From a virus (lineage: Duplodnaviria > Heunggongvirae > Uroviricota > Caudoviricetes), in the IMG/VR virus record IMGVR_UViG_2687453449_000001, positions 1 to 8,803 of that record: 8,803 nt of DNA. One strand, given 5' to 3'. Positions 1 through 8,803 of this stretch are shown here, one piece after another. A program made the translations under genes and the position numbers. Positions within the stretch are counted from its first letter, which is position 1; the number at the start of each line of letters is the position of its first letter. Below the pieces are notes generated by a model. That model saw only the letters and a list, made by a program, of their open reading frames with translations. It made no database searches and was not told the origin of the DNA.

Positions 1-900
1 TTAACGCAACAGTGGACAATCTGGTGGTAATCGACAACGCAACGCTGCCGGAAGTATTTCAATATGAAAATTTTGCCCACTCAACGGTTCGCCATCAAGA
101 TTAAAGGTGATGTCGTGTGGTGCCTGAATATCAAACCACGACGAAGCGCCTTCGATAATATTCGGGTTATCTTCGTCAGATTTTAAGGTTGATACGAGAG
201 CCGGAAGTATTTCATCGCCGGTAAAAATGCGCAGTTGCAGCAAGCCATCGTTAATTAACGCGTTCGGACACAATTGCTGACCGCCACCGGCCTGACGCCC
301 GTTACCAATACCAATGACCAGGGCGTCACCTTGCCAGTGAAAGTTTTCACCGCGGATTTCACAACGGTCCGGTTGCAGAGTATCCATGCGCATTAAGCCA
401 TGAATGATGTAAGAGACGCCACCCAGCGCGGCTTTTAATTTTTCCGGCGTTTCTGTGGTAATACGCGTCCCAAATCCGCCTGTCGCCATATTAATAAAAC
501 AGGTTTGTTTGTTGACCTGCGCCATATCTATCGCAATGGCGTTACCGGCAATTGCCAGTTTCAGCGCCTTATCCAGTGCCTCAGGAATCCCTACACTGGT
601 GGCAAAATCATTGGCGGTTCCTAATGGCAAAATTCCCAGCGCGGGTATGTCATCCCCCTCACACTGAATCAACGCCGTAGAAACTTCATTAATGGTGCCA
701 TCACCACCACCGGCAATCACCGTTGCGACGCCCAACTTCCGGGCCTCCTCTACATATCGTGCGGCATCGCCTTTCTCCCAGGTGACCCGCACATGGATCG
801 TCATTCCTTCCTCACGCAACAGCATAATTGCTTCGCGCAAGGGTAAATTGTCAGTACTTTTGCCATTAAGAATCAGTAAGCTGGCGGGAAATTCTGCCAT
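1..900 (-). CDS. yegS: Lipid kinase YegS (diacylglycerol-kinase-fold)
   Basis: Complete minus-strand ORF: ATG at 898-900, TAA at 1-3, 299 codons. Translation starts [15 protein letters not shown] and contains the GGDG motif; it matches my recollection of E. coli YegS (299 aa). The ORF-track entry 1..1068 is the same frame extended upstream of the real start. Confidence 0.92.
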
Positions 901-1304
901 GATCGTATGTGCCTTTATGATTGGTCTGTAGATAGTGTAGAGCAGAAAAGAAAAGGTGGAGTCAGAACAGGATGAAAGTCGGAGGATAAAAGTCAGTTCA
1001 AGTATGGAGGATTCAGTGGTTACCACCAGGAGCTTGCAATGGGGACAGCGAATACTAACGGCAGCCACCGATAAATTTCAAAAAAGAGAATATACCTAAT
1101 ATTCAACTAAACGGTGGCATCTTCAATATAATATATTAAAGCCCTCATGGAGTTACCCGGAAGGGCCTCCATGTCCGTAATTCCTACTTATGTAGGAAAT
1201 GTTGTACAGAACATTTATTATAATCCTATTCAATTATAATAATCATGCCATTATTATATTTAAACACTAGAGAGTGTCGTTGGTATTTAATGGGGGAAGG
1301 TGAG
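901..1304. promoter_or_regulatory. AT-rich divergent intergenic region between yegS and yegR (putative promoters)
   Basis: 404 bp, AT-rich. TATAAT hexamers at 1219-1224 and 1235-1240 lie upstream of yegR. Imperfect palindrome TTCCTAC-TTAT-GTAGGAA at 1181-1198. Pattern-based only; no transcription start is anchored. Confidence 0.3.
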
Positions 1305-1622
1305 ATGAAAAAGATAGCTGCTATATCATTAATTAGTATTTTTATTATGTCTGGTTGTGCTGTGCATAATGATGAGACAAGTATCGGTAAATTTGGTCTT
1401 GCATATAAAAGTAATATTCAGCGTAAACTCGATAACCAATACTACACCGAAGCCGAAGCTTCTTTAGCCAGGGGTAGAATATCTGGTGCAGAAAATATAG
1501 TAAAAAATGATGCAACTCATTTCTGTGTTACTCAGGGCAAAAAAATGCAAATAGTTGAGCTGAAGACAGAAGGTGTAGGATTACATGGTGTCGCTCGTCT
1601 GACATTCAAATGTGGAGAGTGA
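1305..1622 (+). CDS. yegR: Small putative lipoprotein YegR
   Basis: ATG at 1305 preceded by GGAAGGTGAG (Shine-Dalgarno-like); TGA at 1620-1622; 105 codons. N-terminus MKKIAAISLISIFIMSGC has a signal peptide ending in a lipobox-like MSGC. Gene is strongly AT-rich (~36% GC). Length and position next to yegS match my memory of K-12 yegR. The ORF-track entry 1245..1622 is an upstream extension without a ribosome-binding site. Confidence 0.75.
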   Translation: MKKIAAISLISIFIMSGCAVHNDETSIGKFGLAYKSNIQRKLDNQYYTEAEASLARGRISGAENIVKNDATHFCVTQGKKMQIVELKTEGVGLHGVARLTFKCGE

Positions 1623-1781
1623 GAATATTTTTTGGTAAGCGTCAAATATGCGCGTTCTGGCTGTGCGTAGCCGGAACCTGTGGGAGCACGATGCCGATAA
1701 GTGAAAGGCATCGTGCTATGAAGGAGGATTCTATCGATGTGGTCAATGGAAGACGGTTACCAGAGATAGGGCTTATGCATA

Positions 1782-1808
1782 AAAAAATAAGCCCGTGTAA
1801 GGGAGATT
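1782..1808. repeat. attL core of P2-like prophage (identical to the 3' end of the cyaR sRNA terminator)
   Basis: AAAAAATAAGCCCGTGTAAGGGAGATT is seen at 1782-1808. Its reverse complement, AATCTCCCTTACACGGGCTTATTTTTT, is the 3' terminus of E. coli CyaR (RyeE) as I recall it, which is the known P2 attachment core. Sequence to the right diverges from cyaR and leads into int (phage arm); sequence to the left is host flank. Confidence 0.75.
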
Positions 1809-1887
1809 TAGGGTGTCATCCGTAGGGGCTTTCAACGGTACAATGCGGGTTTGAGCGGCATAAATGACCACTGAAAGCCCTTAAACG

Positions 1888-2901
1888 TTACTCTACTGTG
1901 GACACTGTGTGGACACTCTCGGCCTCAGTACCACCTCTCAGCGGATTAAGAGAAATGGCGTCCTGAAGGTACTCTGGAGCAAAATGAGCGTAAACCATAG
2001 TTTGCTCAATCCGCGTGTGACCTAGTATCCGTTGTAGCGTGATAATACTTCCTCCATTAATCATGAAATGAGTGGCAAAGCTGTGCCTTAGTGCATGTGT
2101 GGCTTGCCCCATTGGCAAATCCGGTTTTATTGCTTTCATTGTTCGTCTGAAGCGAGGGTAATCAGCATCAGGGAATAAAAAACCTCGTTTGTTATCCGCG
2201 ATCATTTTGGCAACAGCCTCTGAGATCGGGACGGTGCGTGGTTTGTTTGTTTTCGTTTTAACAAACGTGACGCGGTTATGAATGATATTTTCTGCTTTCA
2301 AACGAGCTGCTTCTCCCCAACGTGCTCCAGTACTCAGGCAAAGAATCGCAATCTTTTTGTTGTCGCCGTCAAGAGCTGCGAGCAGTAAGGCAATTTCTTC
2401 CTGCGTGAGATAGCCTGTGTCTGGTTTTTCCTCCTTAAGCCTTTTTGTCCCTCTGATAGGGTGCTCACCAAAGTATAACTCCGCTTCAATCAGGGCTGTA
2501 AACATGCCGCTAATACATGTTAAATCACGATTGATACTCGAAGGTTTAATACCCTGACTTCTTCGGGTGGCGCAGTATTGGCTGATAAGCGATTTCGTAA
2601 TTTGAAATGCGCATGGGTCATTCGTTATTTTTGTGAAGATTTCAATTTTTCCAAGATTAGATTTCCCATGCTCTTCGTGTTTACCCTTTAAATCCCACCA
2701 GATCTGTGTCAGCTCCGACAGACGTCGCTTGTCTGTTGGTTTTGATAGCCATTCTTTATTGTGGTGGTTGTACAACGTGTATTTCTCGAAAGCGACAGCT
2801 TCGCTTTTCTTATCAAACTTCCTACGGATGCGTTTTCCATTACGTCCAGTAGGGCGGATGTCCACTTCATATCGACCATCATCGAGTTTTTTGATTGCCA
2901 T
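1888..2901 (-). CDS. int: P2-type tyrosine integrase
   Basis: 337-codon minus-strand ORF: ATG at 2899-2901, TAA at 1888-1890, GGAGG 8 nt upstream. Tyrosine-recombinase signatures are present: TGARWGE (Arg box), HALRHSFAT (HxxR) and LGHTRIEQTMVYAH (catalytic Tyr). Length equals P2 Int (337 aa, from memory). Confidence 0.93.
   Translation of the reverse strand: MAIKKLDDGRYEVDIRPTGRNGKRIRRKFDKKSEAVAFEKYTLYNHHNKEWLSKPTDKRRLSELTQIWWDLKGKHEEHGKSNLGKIEIFTKITNDPCAFQITKSLISQYCATRRSQGIKPSSINRDLTCISGMFTALIEAELYFGEHPIRGTKRLKEEKPDTGYLTQEEIALLLAALDGDNKKIAILCLSTGARWGEAARLKAENIIHNRVTFVKTKTNKPRTVPISEAVAKMIADNKRGFLFPDADYPRFRRTMKAIKPDLPMGQATHALRHSFATHFMINGGSIITLQRILGHTRIEQTMVYAHFAPEYLQDAISLNPLRGGTEAESVHTVSTVE
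1897..1916. repeat. Tandem direct repeats TGTGGACAC x2 (candidate integrase arm-type binding sites)
   Basis: TGTGGACAC at 1897-1905 and 1908-1916, 11-bp period, overlapping the last codons of int. From memory, P2 Int arm sites have the consensus TGTGGACA. Not verified by search. Confidence 0.5.
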
Positions 2902-2954
2902 CAGAAAACCCTCCGAGTGGTGTGTTTTTTTGCGACTACTAATCGTTTTTTTCG

Positions 2955-2977
2955 TGGTGGCTGAAATTTAGCCACCA
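2955..2977. other. Hairpin (8-bp stem TGGTGGCT/AGCCACCA, 7-nt loop) in the C-int intergenic region
   Basis: Perfect inverted repeat seen in sequence, preceded on the plus strand by two T7 runs (2924-2930, 2946-2952). It is not followed by a U-tract on either strand, so it is not a canonical intrinsic terminator. Confidence 0.3.
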
Positions 2978-3016
2978 ATAGTAGGCACTTGTGATGAATA
3001 TATTCACGATGAATTG

Positions 3017-3316
3017 TTAACCAGTCTTTTGACCGGAGTGGGGCGACGTTGTTTCGTTTTGCCCAAAGTGTGCGAGAGCGGGCGCAATTTGCCCGGACTC
3101 AGGAGCGATCTGATTTGTCATGAACCATAAAGTGTATTTGGTGAATTGTGGGGTCTGCAGGATGTTCATCATGACATCTGTTGGAGGTGTTGAACGACCA
3201 CTTTCATAGTAACTCAGCGTGCCATACGGAACCCCTGTTAAATCAGCAAGTTGTTGTCTGCTCAAATACTCTGATTTTCGCATTAAGACTATCTTCTCGC
3301 TTATCGTGTTTGACAT
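3017..3316 (-). CDS. C: Immunity repressor C (helix-turn-helix)
   Basis: 99-codon minus-strand ORF: ATG at 3314-3316, TAA at 3017-3019. Helix-turn-helix-like segment LSRQQLADLTGVPYGTLSYYESG. Same length and position as P2 C (99 aa), upstream of and co-oriented with int. Confidence 0.9.
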   Translation of the reverse strand: MSNTISEKIVLMRKSEYLSRQQLADLTGVPYGTLSYYESGRSTPPTDVMMNILQTPQFTKYTLWFMTNQIAPESGQIAPALAHFGQNETTSPHSGQKTG

Positions 3317-3407
3317 GGTGTTTAGATCTCAATAGTATTTAGTTTAGATGTAGATTGTTTAGTGCTTGGATGTGGGCACTAAAAGGCATTATAAGGCATT
3401 AAACGCA
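3310..3407. promoter_or_regulatory. Lysis-lysogeny switch: face-to-face Pe (rightward) and Pc (leftward) promoters with C operators and cox boxes
   Basis: Seen: TTGACA at 3310-3315, a 17-bp spacer, then TAGTAT at 3333-3338 on the plus strand (candidate Pe). The 8-bp direct repeat GTTTAGAT at 3320-3327 and 3342-3349 (22 bp centre to centre) flanks that -10, as described for P2 operators O1/O2. TATAAT on the minus strand (plus coordinates 3388-3393) is the candidate Pc -10, embedded in three tandem 9-bp repeats TAAAAGGCA, TATAAGGCA, TTAAACGCA (3380-3407) that fit the P2 cox-box consensus TTAAA(G/C)NCA. Promoter and operator identities are by analogy with P2. Confidence 0.6.
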
Positions 3408-3430
3408 ATTCATGAGGGCTGGAGGACGAC

Positions 3431-3706
3431 ATGAGCAAGCAAGTAACACTCATGACTGATGCGATTCCTTATCAGGAGTTCGCAAAACTAATAGGAAAAT
3501 CGACAGGAGCGGTTCGTCGGATGATCGATAAAGGAAAGCTGCCTGTAATTGATATGACCGATCCACAATCAGCTTCAGGTCGTGCAGGTGAATATTGGGT
3601 ATATCTTCCGGCATGGAATAACGGACTAAAACTGGCTTATGAAAGCCGCCCTAAAGAGATTCGTGACGGCTGGTTGATGTGGTTAGGTCTTGGTGAACCA
3701 CGTTAA
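3431..3706 (+). CDS. cox: Cox (excision directionality factor and Pc repressor)
   Basis: 91-codon ORF: ATG at 3431, GGAGG 5 nt upstream, TAA at 3704-3706. Same length and position as P2 Cox. Small basic protein with a helix-turn-helix-like segment. Confidence 0.9.
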   Translation: MSKQVTLMTDAIPYQEFAKLIGKSTGAVRRMIDKGKLPVIDMTDPQSASGRAGEYWVYLPAWNNGLKLAYESRPKEIRDGWLMWLGLGEPR

Positions 3707-3716
3707 GGAGAACCGT

Positions 3717-3887
3717 ATGAATGAGCCTCGTTGTATTGCTCAGTTATTGCGTAACGAAAGCCCCAGGGCGATTGACTTCACCATCACCCACGGTAAGGGG
3801 CGTAAGGGAATCATTATCCGCACCAAAAAACAGAGTCCGTTAAAAAAGGTTCTGACCTTTCTGAAAAGCCGGAGGGTATGGAAATGA
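3717..3887 (+). CDS. Small early protein of unknown function (P2 orf78 position)
   Basis: ATG at 3717 with AAGGAG 7 nt upstream; 56 codons; its TGA (3885-3887) overlaps the B start as ATGA. The ORF-track start at 3690 is a TTG with no ribosome-binding site. Confidence 0.6.
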   Translation: MNEPRCIAQLLRNESPRAIDFTITHGKGRKGIIIRTKKQSPLKKVLTFLKSRRVWK

Positions 3888-4384
3888 CAGTGATGACGCT
3901 CAATCTCGTTGAAAAACAGCCAACAACTATGCGCCGGATAATTGGTAAGCATCTGGCCGTCCCTCGCTGGCAGGAGACATGCGATTATTATAATCAGATG
4001 ATGGAACGCGAACGGTTAACGGTTTGCTTCCATGCGCAGTTAAAACAACGTCACGCAACGATGCGTTTTGAAGAAATGAACGACGTCGAACGTGAACGGC
4101 TGGTTTGTGCAATTGATGAATTGCGTGGGGCATTCTCAAAACGCCGTCAGGTTGGCGCAAGTGAGTATGCATATATTAGTTTTTTAACAGTCAGTCAGCG
4201 TCGCACTTTATTTATGCATGCCGGATTGACTGAAAAAGAATTTAACCAGCCATACTGGCGAATTAATGAGGAATCATGTTACTGGCGTGATGCTTTATTC
4301 CGTGCATTACGTGAATTATTCAGTCTGTTTGAGTATGCGCCGACAATTCTGACGTCGGTAAAACCAGAGCAATATCTGCATTAA
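3884..4384 (+). CDS. B: Replication protein B (DnaB-helicase-associated early protein)
   Basis: ATG at 3884 lies 8 nt after GGAGG (3871-3875) and gives 166 codons, the length I recall for P2 B. The ATG at 3878 is only 2 nt from the Shine-Dalgarno sequence, so it is disfavoured. TAA at 4382-4384. Confidence 0.8.
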   Translation: MTVMTLNLVEKQPTTMRRIIGKHLAVPRWQETCDYYNQMMERERLTVCFHAQLKQRHATMRFEEMNDVERERLVCAIDELRGAFSKRRQVGASEYAYISFLTVSQRRTLFMHAGLTEKEFNQPYWRINEESCYWRDALFRALRELFSLFEYAPTILTSVKPEQYLH

Positions 4385-4447
4385 GTAATTAACCAGAGTT
4401 TTTAACGCACTTAATCGTGCGGGGCTTCTTTTTGCCTGGAGAAAGTC

Positions 4448-4672
4448 ATGCATACAGTTTCTGAAAATCAGTTCGGTAAATACGCATTACTACTGCAACA
4501 GGCCAGAACCGAAGCACAGGCCGACGCTGCGACGCGCTTTTCTTCTCATCTTGACGCCATGATTCGCCACATCACAAAGGCGGAGTTATCCCGCGTGGAG
4601 ATAGTCGAGCTGCTCAGTCAGGAGTCGGAAAAATTTCACAACATCGGATTGTCTCGCGGGGAGGTGCTTTGA
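4448..4672 (+). CDS. Hypothetical early protein (P2 orf80 position)
   Basis: 74 codons; ATG at 4448 with GGAGA 5 nt upstream; its TGA overlaps the next start (TGATG). No recognisable motif. Confidence 0.65.
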
Positions 4673-4974
4673 TGTCCTGTTCTCGTTCAGTTGTTTTACT
4701 GAACAATGCCTTAAAAATCGTCGTTATGAAAAATGGCGATTTGTCTCTTATTCAACTTGGTCTTGATAAAGAAAAACGCGAAATAACTGAATCTGTTATC
4801 GCGATTTATCAGAGTGAATTAAACCTCCTGTCTGATGTGGTCAATTTACTTGTTAAACGCGCTGTATTTCACAAGCAAATTTCCTCCGTGGATGAACTGA
4901 CAAAATTAACGACAGAAATCGCCAGCTATTGCGCTGATGAATTTAAGAAACTGAACGACAAAAGGAGCTGGTAA
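4672..4974 (+). CDS. Hypothetical early protein, compositionally foreign (AT-rich)
   Basis: ATG at 4672 with GGAGG 8 nt upstream; 100 codons; TAA at 4972-4974 overlaps the next start (TAATG). GC is ~35-38% by hand count, against ~48-60% in the flanking phage genes. No recognisable motif. Confidence 0.65.
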   Translation: MSCSRSVVLLNNALKIVVMKNGDLSLIQLGLDKEKREITESVIAIYQSELNLLSDVVNLLVKRAVFHKQISSVDELTKLTTEIASYCADEFKKLNDKRSW

Positions 4975-5198
4975 TGCCGGACAACGTGGATTTTATTCAG
5001 GAACAACAGGCTGAATTACTGGAGCGCCAGATTAACGCGGCAAGGGTAAAACATTGCGGTGCTTCTGCGCTGGTTTGCGAAGAGTGTGACGCGCCAATAC
5101 CTGCTGCCCGTCGTGCGGCTTATCCGTCAGCCACGCGTTGTGTTTCCTGTCAGTCAGTCTTTGAAGCAAAAAACAAACATTACCGGAGAATGGCATGA
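4974..5198 (+). CDS. TraR/DksA-family C4 zinc-finger protein
   Basis: 74 codons; ATG at 4974 with AAGGAG 6 nt upstream. Two CxxC pairs (VCEEC ... RCVSC) about 17 residues apart, typical of the zf-DksA/TraR family carried by many phages. Confidence 0.75.
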   Translation: MPDNVDFIQEQQAELLERQINAARVKHCGASALVCEECDAPIPAARRAAYPSATRCVSCQSVFEAKNKHYRRMA

Positions 5199-5470
5199 GC
5201 ATTCGTATTGAAATTGGCGAACGTTATGTCGTTACCAGTGACAGTTTTCAGTTTATTCTCCACGAGAAAAAGAGAGCGGAAAGTGGTAAAAACGCCGGTC
5301 AGGAGTGGCTGGCGGTGGTTGGTTATTACCCGAAATTAAGCCAGCTCGTTTCCGGCCTGATGCATCACGATATTCTGACCGGAAGCGCAAAGTCTTTTGC
5401 TGATTTAAACGCGCAGGTTGAGCAACTCAGCAGGCGTTGTTCAGAGGCTTTTGGCTCACATGGCCGTTAA
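5195..5470 (+). CDS. Hypothetical early protein (P2 orf83 position)
   Basis: 91 codons; ATG at 5195 overlaps the previous stop (ATGA), GGAG 6 nt upstream; TAA at 5468-5470 lies 11 nt inside the A coding sequence. Confidence 0.65.
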   Translation: MSIRIEIGERYVVTSDSFQFILHEKKRAESGKNAGQEWLAVVGYYPKLSQLVSGLMHHDILTGSAKSFADLNAQVEQLSRRCSEAFGSHGR

Positions 5471-7694
5471 AGCCTCCGGGCGTTTTGTCCCTCCGTCAGC
5501 ATTTGCCGCAGGCACCGGTAAGACGTTTACCGGTGCTTATGCATGGAACGCGCCACGCGAGGCTGTCGGGCGCGAAAGACCCCTTACACGTGACGAGATG
5601 CGTCAGGTGCAAGGTGTTTTATCCACGATTAACCGCCTGCCTTACTTTTTGCGCTCGCTGTTTACTTCACGCTATGACTACATCCGGCGCAATAAAAGCC
5701 CGGTGCACGGGTTTTATTTCCTCACATCCACTTTTCAGCGCCGTTTATGGCCGCGTATTGAGCGCGTGAATCAGCGCCATGAAATGAACACCGACGCGTC
5801 GTTGCTGTTTCTGGCAGAGCGTGACCATTATGCGCGTCTGCCGGGGATGAATGACAAGGAGCTGAAAAAGTTTGCTGCCCGTATCTCATCGCAGCTTTTC
5901 ATGATGTATGAGGAACTCTGCGATGCCTGGGTTGATGCACATGGCGAAAAAGAATTGCTGTTTACGGATGAGGCGCAGGCGCATCTGTATGGTCATGTTG
6001 CTGGCGCTGCACGTGCTTTCAATATTTCCCCGCTCTACTGGAAAAAATACCGTAAAGGACAGATGACCACGAGGCAGGCATATTCTGCCATTGCCCGCCT
6101 GTTTAACGATGAGTGGTGGACTCATCAGCTTAAAGGCCAGCGTATGCGCTGGCATGAGGCGTTACTGATTGCTGTCGGGGAGGTCAATAAAGACCGTTCT
6201 CCTTATGCCAGTAAACATGCCATTCGTGATGTGCGTGCACGCCGCCAGGCAAATCTGGAATTTCTTAAATCGTGTGACCTTGAAAACAGGGAAACCGGCG
6301 AGCGCATCGACCTTATCAGTAAGGTGATGGGCAGTATTTCTAATCCTGAAATTCGCCGGATGGAGCTGATGAACACCATTGCCGGTATTGAGCGTTACGC
6401 CGCCGCAGAGGGTGATGTGGGGATGTTTATCACGCTGACCGCGCCGTCAAAGTATCACCCGACACGTCAGGTCGGAAAAGGCGAAAGTAAAACCGTTCAG
6501 CTTAATCACGGCTGGAACGATGAGGCATTTAATCCAAAGGATGCGCAGCGTTATCTCTGCCGTATCTGGAGCCTGATGCGCACGGCATTCAAGGATAATG
6601 ATTTACAGGTCTACGGTTTGCGAGTCGTCGAGCCACACCACGACGGAACGCCGCACTGGCATATGATGCTTTTTTGTAATCCACGCCAGCGTAACCAGAT
6701 TATCGAAATCATACGTCGCTATGCGCTCAAAGAGGATGGCGACGAAAGAGGAGCCGCGCGAAACCGTTTTCAGGCAAAACATCTTAACCGGGGCGGTGCT
6801 GCGGGGTATATCGCGAAATACATCTCAAAAAACATCGATGGCTATGCACTGGATGGTCAGCTCGATAACGATACCGGCAGGCCGCTGAAAGATACTGCTG
6901 CGGCTGTTACCGCATGGGCGTCAACGTGGCGCATTCCGCAATTTAAAACGGTTGGTCTGCCGACAATGGGGGCTTACCGTGAACTACGCAAATTGCCTCG
7001 CGGCGTCAGCATTGCTGATGAGTTTGACGAGCGCGTCGAGGCTGCACGCGCCGCTGCAGACAGTGGTGATTTTGCGTTGTATATCAGCGCGCAGGGCGGG
7101 GCAAATGTCCCGCGCGATTGTCAGACTGTCAGGGTCGCCCGTAGCCCGTCGGATGACGTTAACGAGTACGAGGAAGAAGTCGAGAGAGTGGTCGGCATTT
7201 ACGCGCCGCATCTCGGCGCGCGTCATATTCATATCACCAGAACGACGGACTGGCGTATTGTGCCGAAAGTTCCGGTCGTTGAGCCTTTGACTTTAAAAAG
7301 CGGCATCGCCGCGCCTCGGAGTCCTGTCAATAACTGTGGAAAGCTCACCGGTGGTGATACTTCGTCACCGGCTCCCACGCCTTCTGAACACGCCGCAGCA
7401 GTGCTTAATCTGGTAGATGACGGTGTTATCGAATGGAATGACCAGGAGGTCGTGAGGGCGCTCAGAGGTGCATTAAAACACGGTCTGAGAAGACCAAACC
7501 GTCAGCAAAGAAACGGAAGCCCGTTAAAACCGCATGAAATAGCGCCATCGGCCAGACTGACTCGGTCGGAACGAATGCAAATTACCCGTATCCGCGTTGA
7601 CCTTGCTCAGAACGGTATCAGGCCACAGCGATGGGAGCTTGAGGCGCTGGCGCGTGGCGCGACCGTAAATTATGACGGGAAAAAATTCGCTTAA
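5460..7694 (+). CDS. A: Rolling-circle replication initiator A (HUH endonuclease)
   Basis: 744 codons from ATG 5460 to TAA 7692-7694. HUH motif PHWHMML at codons 398-404. Paired tyrosines in GYIAKYISK fall at codons 450 and 454 counting from this ATG, the same positions I recall for the P2 A catalytic tyrosines, which supports this start over the TTG at 5418 used by the ORF track. Confidence 0.9.
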   Translation: MAVKASGRFVPPSAFAAGTGKTFTGAYAWNAPREAVGRERPLTRDEMRQVQGVLSTINRLPYFLRSLFTSRYDYIRRNKSPVHGFYFLTSTFQRRLWPRIERVNQRHEMNTDASLLFLAERDHYARLPGMNDKELKKFAARISSQLFMMYEELCDAWVDAHGEKELLFTDEAQAHLYGHVAGAARAFNISPLYWKKYRKGQMTTRQAYSAIARLFNDEWWTHQLKGQRMRWHEALLIAVGEVNKDRSPYASKHAIRDVRARRQANLEFLKSCDLENRETGERIDLISKVMGSISNPEIRRMELMNTIAGIERYAAAEGDVGMFITLTAPSKYHPTRQVGKGESKTVQLNHGWNDEAFNPKDAQRYLCRIWSLMRTAFKDNDLQVYGLRVVEPHHDGTPHWHMMLFCNPRQRNQIIEIIRRYALKEDGDERGAARNRFQAKHLNRGGAAGYIAKYISKNIDGYALDGQLDNDTGRPLKDTAAAVTAWASTWRIPQFKTVGLPTMGAYRELRKLPRGVSIADEFDERVEAARAAADSGDFALYISAQGGANVPRDCQTVRVARSPSDDVNEYEEEVERVVGIYAPHLGARHIHITRTTDWRIVPKVPVVEPLTLKSGIAAPRSPVNNCGKLTGGDTSSPAPTPSEHAAAVLNLVDDGVIEWNDQEVVRALRGALKHGLRRPNRQQRNGSPLKPHEIAPSARLTRSERMQITRIRVDLAQNGIRPQRWELEALARGATVNYDGKKFA
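7311..7330 (+). other. Candidate ori / A-protein nick region inside the A coding sequence
   Basis: GCGCCTCGGAGTCCTGTCAA is seen at 7311-7330. From memory this matches the P2 origin nick region, which is known to lie within the 3' part of gene A. Recall-based; needs alignment to confirm. Confidence 0.4.
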
Positions 7695-7794
7695 CAACCG
7701 AATGCGCCCCCGCGCCAGGGCGGCACGCCGGTCAGTGAGGGTGAATCACCTGACACTGCACCGGCGTCCACCGCCCGACTTTTCAGAGGTAGTC

Positions 7795-8235
7795 ATGATG
7801 ACGCTGATTATTCCGCGAAAGGAGGCTCCTGTATCCGGTGAGGGTACGGTGGTCATCCCGCAACCGGCAGGCGACGAGCCGGTGATTAAAAACACGTTCT
7901 TTTTTCCCGATATCGACCCGAAGCGCGTCCGGGAACGTATGCGCCTTGAGCAGACCGTCGCCCCCGCCCGTCTGCGTGAGGCCATCAAGTCAGGCATGGC
8001 GGAGACGAATGCGGAGCTGTACGAGTACCGCGAACAGAAAATTGCCGCCGGTTTTACGCGTCTGGCGGACGTCCCGGCGGACGACATCGACGGTGAAAGC
8101 ATCAGGGTTTTTTACTACGAGCGCGCTGTGTGTGCGATGGCGACCGCGTCGCTTTATGAGCGTTATCGCGGCGTGGATGCCAGTGCGAAAACTGCTGTTT
8201 CTCAAAGCGGGGCAGGGGGTGACGGCCAGCGGTAA
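7795..8235 (+). pseudogene. L: Truncated head completion/stabilisation gene L fragment (L')
   Basis: ATG-ATG at 7795 with GAGG upstream. Translation MMTLIIPRKEAPVSGEGTVVIPQPAGDEPVIKNTFFFPDIDPKRVRERMRLEQTVAPARLREAIKSG... matches my recollection of P2-family gpL up to about ...YRGVDASAK (~8190). The last 14 codons (TAVSQSGAGGDGQR) are an out-of-frame read of D sequence. 146 codons against ~169 for intact L. Confidence 0.6.
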
Positions 8236-8803
8236 AAAAATCCCGCAGATTACCATCACCCGCAGCGACGGTGACCGTCATCATTTTGCGATTGCTGACC
8301 GTGGAGCCTATACCGGCGTAACGGCAAAGTGGTTACACACCAAAGACCCGAAACCACAAAAGCAGAAGGTAAAACTGAAACGCAAAAAGAAAGAAAAACA
8401 CCTGCGCGCACTGGAGCACCCGAAAGCAAAACCGGTCACGCAGAAGAAAGCGCCAAAAGTACCGGAAGCGCGCGAAGGTGAATACATGGCCGGTGAGGCT
8501 GACAACGTTTTTGCCCTGACTACGGTATATGCCACGAAAGCGCAGGCCATGCGCGCCGCTCAGGCGAAGTGGGATAAACTGCAACGGGGTGTGGCGGAGT
8601 TCTCCATCAGCCTGGCTACCGGTCGTGCAGATATTTACACGGAAACACCGGTTAAAGTGTCAGGCTTTAAGCGCGTCATAGACGAGCAGGACTGGACAAT
8701 CACTAAGGTGACACATTTTCTGAATAATAGCGGCTTCACGACGTCCTTGGAGCTTGAGGTCAGGCTTTCTGATGTGGAGTACGAAACAGAAGATGATGAG
8801 TGA
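8189..8803 (+). pseudogene. yegZ: C-terminal fragment of tail gene D (yegZ-like, D')
   Basis: Frame +2 reads LKAGQGVTASGKKIPQITITRSDGDRHHFAIADRGAYTGVTAKWLHTKDPKPQKQKVKLKRKKKEKHLRALEHPKAKP...RLSDVEYETEDDE with TGA at 8801-8803. This is the C-terminal ~200 residues of P2-family gpD as I recall it, and K-12 yegZ is annotated as such a fragment. There is no plausible start with a ribosome-binding site. The upstream 80 codons of ORF-track entry 7946..8803 are an out-of-frame read of L'. Confidence 0.8.

Follow-up and report, generated by a model that had tools for sequence, protein, structure and literature searches.

The closest described system to the locus analysed here is the left attachment junction of bacteriophage P2 at locI of Escherichia coli (AF063097 / NC_001895), a recombination system worked out by Haggard-Ljungquist and colleagues; the att sites of P2 are reportedly the subject of two papers, by Barreiro and Haggard-Ljungquist in 1992 and by Yu and Haggard-Ljungquist in 1993. 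In E. coli, P2 integrates preferentially at locI, the 3' end of the small RNA gene cyaR. A published list of P2 prophage insertion sites includes cyaR for strains W, K-12 and B, and the prophages found there, defective or full, are 'Wphi2' in W, 'ogr-D'' in K-12 and 'P2*B' in B (PMC3032704, Table 2). The same principle is used by 186 and by Fels-2/SopE-phi at ssrA, where the phage supplies a replacement 3' end of the RNA gene (PMC3448106). A more distant model is the attL of lambda with its Int/Xis/IHF excisive intasome, in which a heterobivalent tyrosine integrase holds core-type and arm-type sites, the excisionase binds between core and arm, and IHF bends the DNA.

The window, i.e., the whole stretch of 8,803 nt that we analysed, contains a site that compares closely with the first of these systems: positions 1782 to 1922 together with the flank on their left are, with very little doubt, the canonical attL (B-O-P') of a P2 prophage at locI, at the 3' end of cyaR. 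An attL at cyaR is the textbook left junction of P2 and already well known. The finding is therefore correct but not new, because cyaR is a published P2 site, and nothing is changed for P2; mainly it validates the first reading of the sequence, and offers a clean example of an att site replacing the 3' end of an sRNA. What is established here is the identity of the site, its boundaries, the mapping of the annotated binding sites, the intact reading frames and the existence of an attR. The parts of the junction are:

1769–1794, no strand: 8-bp inverted repeat with a 10-nt loop, left arm in the host flank and right arm in the core
1782–1808, plus strand: att core (O), 27 bp, AAAAAATAAGCCCGTGTAAGGGAGATT, equal to the P2 'attP' feature 24356–24382
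1825–1898, no strand: Cox (excisionase) binding region, mapped from the P2 protein_bind feature 'Cox' 24399–24472
1896–1922, plus strand: Int arm-type sites of the P' arm, P2 protein_bind feature 'Int, P' arm' 24470–24496, 100% identical to P2

Aligned to P2 by blastn, the window is collinear and without indels from 1782 to 7688, at 97.6% identity. Feature coordinates of P2 could thus be converted to window coordinates with a single offset of 22574, given that there are no indels, and the protein_bind features that GenBank gives for P2 fall at 1782–1809 (Int core site), 1825–1898 (Cox) and 1896–1922 (Int P' arm). The junction shares with P2 attL the identical 27-bp core, the P' arm Int sites, the pattern of Cox boxes, the position of int and the chromosomal site between yegR and cyaR; it differs by three point changes in the right arm (1819, 1821 and 1866). 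The same arrangement of yegS, attL and int through A occurs in about 607 of 5,426 complete E. coli genomes. We found no evidence that contradicts the identification as a P2 attL, and all caveats are functional.

The core is defined by exact breakpoints on both sides. Phage matches start at window position 1782 and the matches of unoccupied E. coli chromosomes, which run from the same yegS-yegR flank through the core into the body of cyaR, stop at 1808; the four-way alignment of attL, attP, attB and attR has the same bacterial and phage breakpoints, and the 27 bp are common exactly to attP, attL and attR. The original prediction had placed a core equal to the 3' end of CyaR at 1782–1808, with divergence into phage DNA to its right. 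All of its coordinates were exact and every string was found where it had been placed, and the match to the cyaR 3' end held on database comparison: the minus strand of the core is the last 27 nt of cyaR (terminator loop, 3' half of the stem and U-run), in a sequence that Rfam scores as CyaR with 100.7 bits at the empty site and at attR. The description of the junction as lying at the cyaR terminator is right as to the cyaR 3' end, but not in the sense of a terminator in the window, which holds only an orphan copy of 27 nt. That Rfam gives no match to CyaR (RyeE, RF00112) anywhere in the window, whether the cut-off is the gathering score or E ≤ 10, is expected because only this orphan copy is present; the complete gene, with its full-length covariance-model match, is found at attR and in the empty sites. 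The promoter and terminator scan likewise gave no terminator-like site around the junction.

On the phage side, the original prediction of a tandem repeat, TGTGGACAC, at 1897–1905 and 1908–1916 inside the 3' end of int was borne out: both copies fall within the final codons of the int reading frame, and they are the annotated P'-arm Int sites of P2. The repeat is really 10 nt long, TGTGGACACT, with an offset of 11 nt. These two direct arm-type sites, TGTGGACA(CT) at 1897 and 1908, overlap int at its 3' end, and no further exact copy of TGTGGACA exists in the whole window; a direct repeat of at least 9 nt was reached in 10 of 2000 dinucleotide shuffles. Both the core and the arm repeats are far beyond chance. 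For comparison, the arm-site consensus of P2-type phages is given as tgTGGaCa (PMC3448106). Between the core and the P' arm, the sequence of 1825–1898 is that of a Cox region: a scan with the published cox-box consensus returned the same cox-box-like matches as in P2, plus one more that is added by the change at 1866. According to PMC3936717, from which the consensus was taken, attP contains six boxes for Cox, and Cox exerts its action at attL.

The second junction was found in the source genome. As had been anticipated for a distance of up to ~40 kb, another exact copy of the core lies beside an intact cyaR in CP013048.1, 7,423 bp downstream and 402 bp beyond the end of the window:

13684–13772 of L126, outside the window: attR, with a P arm carrying two arm sites, the IHF site and the core

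This attR carries a wild-type P arm. In the P arm and IHF region it does not differ from the attP of two isolated phages, P2_2H1 and 10W, and the core is followed by the intact cyaR that gives the Rfam score above. As in other integrations at tRNA, tmRNA and sRNA 3' ends, the core thus duplicates the 3' end of a structured RNA while the gene, here cyaR, stays intact at attR; unlike the tRNA-like targets, the gene used is that of the Hfq-dependent sRNA CyaR.

Between the two junctions lies much less than a phage genome, 7.4 kb as compared with the 33.6 kb of P2. The reading frames and scars in the window are:

1888–2901, minus strand: int, tyrosine integrase, 337 aa, Pfam Int_N and Phage_integrase
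3017–3316, minus strand: C, immunity repressor, 99 aa, identical to P2 C
3431–3706, plus strand: cox, excisionase and Pc repressor, 91 aa, identical to P2 Cox, Pfam Phage_Cox
5460–7694, plus strand: replication gene A, truncated, 744 aa as compared with 761 in P2, P2 homology ending at 7688
7691–8803, plus strand: deletion scars, an M'/L' scrap and then the end of D (blastn against P2)

The int, C and cox frames are intact, which provides the site with its cognate integrase and Cox. Just two substitutions, F143Y and E161D, separate Int from P2 Int (99.4% identical), and one residue separates it from the Int of isolated peduoviruses (99.7%). The truncated A has lost its last 19 codons, and the ori nick site maps to about 7318. 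It is fused to the M'/L' scrap (7691–8190, P2 5897–6395), which is fused in turn to the last 620 nt of D (8184–8803, P2 23335–23954) through a 7-bp overlap. These A'/M'L'/D' junctions occur in 0 of 5,426 complete E. coli genomes. The content of the remnant is accordingly int, C, cox, B, orf80–83, truncated A, the M'/L' scrap, the end of D, and ogr. The late genes Q–D, cos and a full-length A, by which an intact inducible P2 prophage would be recognized, are not there: all that is left of the late region is the 500-bp M'/L' scrap plus the end of D, and the cos region has been lost. The element is thus a defective 7.4-kb deletion remnant of P2 from which no virion is possible, with the immunity repressor kept. 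Like the cyaR prophages of K-12, B and W, it occupies this insertion site and ends in the same attR (ogr, P arm, core and cyaR), and in the D'-ogrK-attR segment K-12 and the source genome match at nearly every base. K-12 has lost attL: its left core breaks off after ...CGTGTA and continues directly into the final ~213 nt of D. The element studied here, in contrast, retains attL, int, C, cox, B and most of A.

The arrangement would follow from the known mechanism. P2 Int, a lambda-type heterobivalent tyrosine recombinase, would have joined the 27-bp core of attP with the identical end of cyaR, such that the far junction (attR) kept an intact cyaR and the int-proximal junction kept the orphan core followed by the P' arm. 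Excision would require Int to bridge core and arm sites while Cox coats the boxes in attL and IHF bends the P arm in attR, and the products would be a circle of 7,423 bp and a restored attB. The parallel to lambda lies in the type of integrase, the two classes of Int site, the excisionase bound between core and arm and the bending by IHF. The sequences themselves differ, the excisionase sites of P2 are in the int-proximal P' arm and its P arm has a single IHF site, P2 targets an sRNA terminator and not the gal-bio spacer, and P2 Cox doubles as the repressor of the lysis-lysogeny switch (PMC3936717).

That the core could match by coincidence, or derive from some other integrative element so that the site is not a P2 att site at all, has a negligible probability. 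No evidence favouring it was found, and it is ruled out by the 27/27 identity with exact homology breakpoints on both sides, by the 97.6% P2 homology of the whole right side, and by the two exact core copies that bracket the element, when 0 are expected by chance in 22 kb. A different question is what else belongs to the site. The original prediction had noted that GGGCTTAT (1769–1776) in the host flank is the exact reverse complement of ATAAGCCC (1787–1794) in the core, and had counted the resulting hairpin among the features that make attL structurally complete. The pairing is real, and attL does look complete, but what completes it is the Cox region at 1825–1898, which that prediction had left unmentioned, and the hairpin is no part of the architecture: the repeat is unchanged in the unoccupied attB, and hence no feature of the junction, and it has no equivalent in P2 attP or attR. 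A working hairpin, be it a cruciform or single-strand structure in recombination or an RNA hairpin that ends or stabilises cyaR read-through, yegR or int transcripts, is most unlikely, even with a perfect 8-bp stem that is present in nearly all E. coli and folding energies of –6.8 kcal/mol as single-stranded DNA (z = –2.15) and –10.5 kcal/mol as minus-strand RNA (z = –2.0). Perfect inverted repeats of at least 8 bp with a loop of 3–20 nt arise in 54 of 2000 shuffles of 1760–1920 (2.7%) and about nine times in the whole window, i.e., this one is real but only marginally unusual. Against a function, a flank/core repeat of at least 8 bp occurs in 3 of 120 independent cyaR loci, which is the chance frequency, and the flanks are unrelated in other genera whose cyaR terminator is the same. 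E. coli strains differ in the left arm (TGGTTTAT, GGGCTTAC, CGGCTTAT), and no compensating change accompanies these mutations because the right arm is fixed by the core. No T-run follows the stem on either strand, the terminator scan is empty, and 1769–1794 has the properties neither of an intrinsic terminator nor of a conserved structure; lambda-type tyrosine integrases, moreover, act on duplex DNA and do not require a hairpin. We regard the repeat as something that the E. coli flank happens to carry, and not as a working part of the site.

Accepting the junction as a P2 attL with core, Cox region and P' arm, we must still ask whether it would work. The cis sites and trans factors for excision all look intact in sequence, and we lean slightly towards the view that the sites would still be bound and that excision would still occur. 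With an intact C, repression of cox should be expected, and P2 is classically non-inducible as a lysogen, therefore any excision would be rare. It is also possible, to a degree that deserves attention without making it our expectation, that the junction is a dead scar, intact in appearance in a remnant that can no longer excise, whether through the private substitutions in the Cox and Int region, the two changes in Int, a cox gene that C represses for good, or all three combined. Two internal deletions and the truncation of A show that the element is decaying, and selection on its att sites may for that reason be relaxed. The right-arm substitutions 1819T, 1821C and 1866G are absent from the three viable phages P2, P2_2H1 and 10W, and the exact remnant is in no other complete E. 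coli genome, so that there is no sign of mobility; the non-inducibility of P2 lysogens points the same way. On the other side, the core, both P' arm sites and all of the P2 cox-box matches are identical to P2, the arm at attR is that of viable phages, Cox and C are 100% P2, and Int is one residue from that of isolated phages. The element of this strain is thereby marked as a defective, possibly still excisable P2 remnant with an immunity repressor.

Whereas the DNA on the right of the core is that of P2, the DNA on its left is that of E. coli (yegS, yegR). This flank has a history of its own:

901–991, no strand: ancestral yegS-cyaR spacer, ending inside the former A-run of the ancestral cyaR core
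992–1781, plus strand: E. coli-specific insertion of 790 bp, GC 0.39, the B arm of attB and attL
1734–1770, plus strand: probable fossil P arm in the host flank, TCGATGTGGTCAATG being the start of the P2 Int P-arm site (15/15)

In Escherichia sp. E1V33 the sequence corresponding to 901–991 leads straight to the cyaR terminator by local alignment, and a motif of this spacer, GTCAGAACAGGATGAAAG, flanks cyaR in many genera. The insertion at 992–1781 contains yegR (1245–1622) and a hairpin with an 11-bp stem (1685–1717); the other genera sampled lack it between yegS and cyaR, and members of the YegR family are hardly found outside E. coli and Shigella. In an unbiased blastn-short search of the complete P2 genome the 15-mer fell at P2 24293–24307, and in the flank it is followed by a decayed second arm site and ACCAGAgATA. 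The local alignment score of this P arm is 38 as compared with 13.4 ± 2.2 for shuffles, and was reached in 0 of 5000. When the complete P2 sequence was searched with 992–1781 for relics of an ancient attL or int, the only matches were the P-arm 15-mer and one AT-rich 16-mer of the kind expected by chance. The insertion sits exactly at the ancestral cyaR core, and it is quite likely that attB at locI is itself the attR scar of an older P2-like element. Derivation of the P2 P arm from the E. coli flank was considered and rejected, the E. coli copy being the degenerate one; P2-like elements in Citrobacter, Buttiauxella, Trabulsiella and others share a P arm that is intact, complete with the two arm sites and the IHF box. 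The arm-type site TGTGGTCA (1738–1745) is invariant in the 7 divergent E. coli flanks inspected. It might conceivably still bind the N-terminal domain of Int and so aid the preference for locI or the assembly of the excisive complex, which we consider improbable; if true, such binding would make locI and attL partly attP-like.

Two records that might have shown a phage origin of the flank were rejected: ON470606 is a prophage excerpt that includes yegS and yegR, and 'Phage TP' (AY639599) is a K-12-type remnant with its flanks. Neither yegR nor the flank at 1623–1781 was found in true phage genomes. Distant YegR homologues lie in an IS-rich island and in a housekeeping neighbourhood, none of them in prophages. 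Arrival of yegR as phage cargo is therefore no more than a possibility. The flank at locI looks like a fossil attR with which this orphan gene came in.

We also note that in many enterobacterial genera the 3' end of cyaR is in use as an att site of P2 type. Together with the probable fossil attR at locI, this suggests that a 'bacterial' att site can be made out of the remains of a previous phage; both observations are by-products of modest value for studies of prophage decay and att-site evolution.

The 27-bp core, AAAAAATAAGCCCGTGTAAGGGAGATT, is located at 1782-1808, and its two boundaries were set independently, by homology breakpoints: phage genomes begin to match the window at 1782 and run rightwards, and prophage-free E. 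coli chromosomes match it from 1 to 1808. In an unoccupied E. coli strain (L002) the flank to the left of the core is the same, the 27 nt follow unchanged, and the body of cyaR (minus strand) comes next. The Rfam match in this empty site (CyaR, 100.7 bits) identifies the core as the last 27 nt of CyaR, i.e., terminator loop, 3' half-stem and U-run, which bears out the claim that the core equals the CyaR 3' end. In the window itself Rfam did not find CyaR, of which there is an orphan 27-mer only, and a scan around the junction found no terminator-like site. Because the order is B-O-P' (bacterial arm, core, phage arm) in P2's own orientation (ogr-P-O-P'-int), which also agrees with the literature placing Cox sites in attL, this prophage junction is attL. 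All strings and coordinates of the original prediction (core, inverted repeat, tandem repeats) proved exact on checking.

The window corresponds base for base to 4542-13344 of L126, a stretch of the source genome CP013048.1. A second core within ~40 kb downstream, adjoining an intact cyaR, had been anticipated, and L126 contains one at 13746-13772, an exact copy 7,423 bp from the first and 402 bp past the window end, for which the chance expectation is zero. Upstream of it are ogr, the ogr terminator and a P arm that keeps its two arm sites (TGTGGTCA, TGTGGACG) as well as the IHF region; downstream are an intact cyaR (Rfam 100.7 bits) and then yegQ. The second core and the intact cyaR beside it remove both objections that had been foreseen to the attL reading. 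The P arm and IHF sequence of this attR is identical to the attP of the isolated phages P2_2H1 and 10W, and is thus a wild-type variant.

Window 1782-7688 is collinear with bacteriophage P2 24356-30262 (97.6%, no indels), so that a window coordinate equals the P2 coordinate minus 22574. Binding-site features, experimentally derived in P2, were taken from the P2 GenBank record and placed in the window by mapping.

P2 features mapped onto the window (P2 coordinates in parentheses)
1782-1809 (24356-24383): attP / Int core site
1825-1898 (24399-24472): Cox
1888-2901 (24462-25475), minus strand: int CDS
1896-1922 (24470-24496): Int, P' arm

The tandem copies of TGTGGACAC (1897-1905 and 1908-1916) both fall within the last codons of the 337-aa minus-strand ORF at 1888-2901. 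A direct repeat of such length occurs in 0.5% of dinucleotide shuffles, and the exact TGTGGACA has no further copies anywhere in the window. Since they lie within the mapped Int P' arm feature, these repeats, originally proposed as att arm repeats, coincide with P2's two arm-type Int sites, for which the consensus in P2-type phages is tgTGGaCa (PMC3448106). The stretch from the core to the tandem repeats is predicted to be the Cox-binding region. Cox has six boxes at attP (consensus TTAAA(G/C)NC(A/C)) and has been proposed to act in attL in excision (PMC3936717). Cox-box-like matches are the same in the window as in P2, and across the 149 nt that span core and P' arm there are three differences from P2, at 1819, 1821 and 1866; these substitutions are also absent from P2_2H1 and 10W. 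C and Cox are identical to the P2 proteins; Int differs from P2 Int by F143Y and E161D and has 99.7% identity to Int of isolated peduoviruses. The substitution at 1866 adds an extra weak cox-box-like match, TAAATGACC.

The other proposed component of the site was a hairpin between host flank and core. GGGCTTAT (1769-1776) is indeed the exact reverse complement of ATAAGCCC (1787-1794), but this inverted repeat is unchanged in the unoccupied attB and has no counterpart in P2 attP or attR. Inverted repeats of at least 8 bp arise in 2.7% of shuffles, about nine comparable ones are found in the window, and the folding z-score is about -2. A scan for the cyaR terminator, one genome per species, gave 120 loci across Enterobacteriaceae as an empirical null, and three of them have an inverted repeat of 8 bp or more between flank and core, in agreement with the shuffle estimate; their flanks are unrelated to that of E. 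coli, GGGCTTAT recurring only in a second E. coli genome. Flank and core together were found in 5,394 of 5,426 genomes. Within E. coli the left arm is polymorphic (TGGTTTAT, GGGCTTAC, CGGCTTAT), and there is no compensation because the right arm is fixed as part of the core. No T-run follows the inverted repeat on either strand, and lambda-type integrases recombine duplex DNA. The inverted repeat belongs to the E. coli flank and core and not to the junction, and we regard the hairpin as incidental, any function being highly improbable. The original interpretation was otherwise essentially right: of the 'structurally complete' attachment site it described, the arm repeats and core stand, though the hairpin is no part of it and the Cox region had been left out. 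We also note that removing 8 nt (AAAAATAA) from 1769-1794 would give a perfect 18-bp palindrome, GGGCTTATGCATAAGCCC.

The prophage itself is a deletion remnant. A is cut after 7688, 57 nt short of its stop codon (744 aa vs 761 in P2), and joined to 500 bp of M'/L' (P2 5897-6395); a 7-bp overlap (8184-8190) links this scrap in turn to the final 620 nt of D. A search of 5,426 complete E. coli genomes found no other carrier of these junctions; about 607 of them share the yegS-attL-int...A left end. Virions are impossible, as the element has lost cos along with practically every head, tail and lysis gene. The replication origin nick site within A maps to about 7318. Judged from the sequence, all parts required for Int/Cox/IHF excision are present, and we lean slightly towards excision still happening. 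P2 is classically non-inducible, and cox should stay silent because C is intact.

Window 1-1781 is E. coli chromosome, with yegS (1-900, minus strand) and yegR (1245-1622), a flank present in 5,425 of the 5,426 complete genomes. When attL, attP, attB and attR are aligned, this flank shares TCGATGTGGTCAATG (15/15) with the start of P2's annotated P-arm Int site, followed by a decayed second arm site and then ACCAGAgATA; the P2 IHF region is about 15 nt shorter in the E. coli flank. Local alignment of the flank to the P2 P arm scores 38, against 13.4 +/- 2.2 for shuffles (0/5000 reach 38), and an unbiased search with short words from the flank, covering the whole P2 genome, finds the 15-mer exactly at P2 24293. 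In most other genera the distance between yegS and the cyaR terminator is about 100 bp. This ancestral spacer is kept at window 901-991 and is broken at 991/992, inside the A-run of the ancestral core, which makes 992-1781 an insertion at the att site itself. The insertion (790 bp, low GC of 0.39) is E. coli lineage-specific and carries yegR and a separate hairpin (1685-1717); its cyaR-proximal end is the fossil P arm (1734-1770). Given its placement precisely at the ancestral core of cyaR and the decayed P2 P arm at its end, attB locI, the preferred E. coli P2 site, resembles an attR scar left by an older P2-like element. The YegR family is almost restricted to E. coli and Shigella; neither of two distant homologues sits in a prophage and yegR was not found in true phage genomes, so it is unproven that a phage ever carried yegR. 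Seven divergent E. coli flanks that we inspected all keep the fossil arm site unchanged. Residual function is nonetheless unlikely: the site is wrongly spaced, standing 44 bp from the core (58 bp in P2), and its IHF box is lost.

In the same seven flanks, too few for constraint to be inferred, the invariant block is a 27-mer, CTATCGATGTGGTCAATGGAAGACGGT (1731-1757), that includes the fossil arm-type site; the positions to either side of it vary. Downstream of yegR, a strong hairpin at 1685-1717 with a perfect 11-bp stem (GCACGATGCCG / CGGCATCGTGC) occupies the place of P2's ogr terminator just ahead of the P arm; this hairpin lacks a downstream T-run, and both its loop and the sequence around it differ among E. 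coli strains. The yegR of E. coli ECMA0423 (L046 280-640) is an unusually divergent allele, its product, a small putative lipoprotein, having about 50% protein identity to that of window yegR (1245-1622) in closely similar surrounding DNA.

The attL finding is correct and already known. Barreiro & Haggard-Ljungquist (1992) reportedly described the 27-nt core, locI and the K-12 remnant, and Yu & Haggard-Ljungquist (1993) are said to have described the Int, IHF and Cox sites. The remnant in a K-12-type strain (L127) aligns almost base for base with the source genome in its D'-ogr-attR end (ogrK in K-12), but has lost attL: at about 3395-3400 (compared with window 1782-1800) its left core breaks off after ...AAGCCCGTGTA (CGTGTA), and the final ~213 nt of D are fused on there. 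PMC3032704 (Table 2) lists cyaR among the sites where P2 prophages are inserted, with Wphi2 in E. coli W, ogr-D' in K-12 and P2*B in B.

Beyond E. coli, P2-like P arms (TGTGGTCAATGTGTGGAC then AAATAAATCCTTTTATTTCA) directly flank the cyaR terminator in Citrobacter, Buttiauxella, Trabulsiella, Huaxiibacter, E. albertii and others (loci L019, L025, L038, L053, L066, L067, L078, L080, L082, L092, L104 and L117), and degenerate P arms are seen at cyaR in Salmonella diarizonae (L075), Pluralibacter (L105) and Enterobacter bugandensis (L088). The cyaR 3' end is a family-wide P2-type att site, with a core that tracks each host's terminator sequence.
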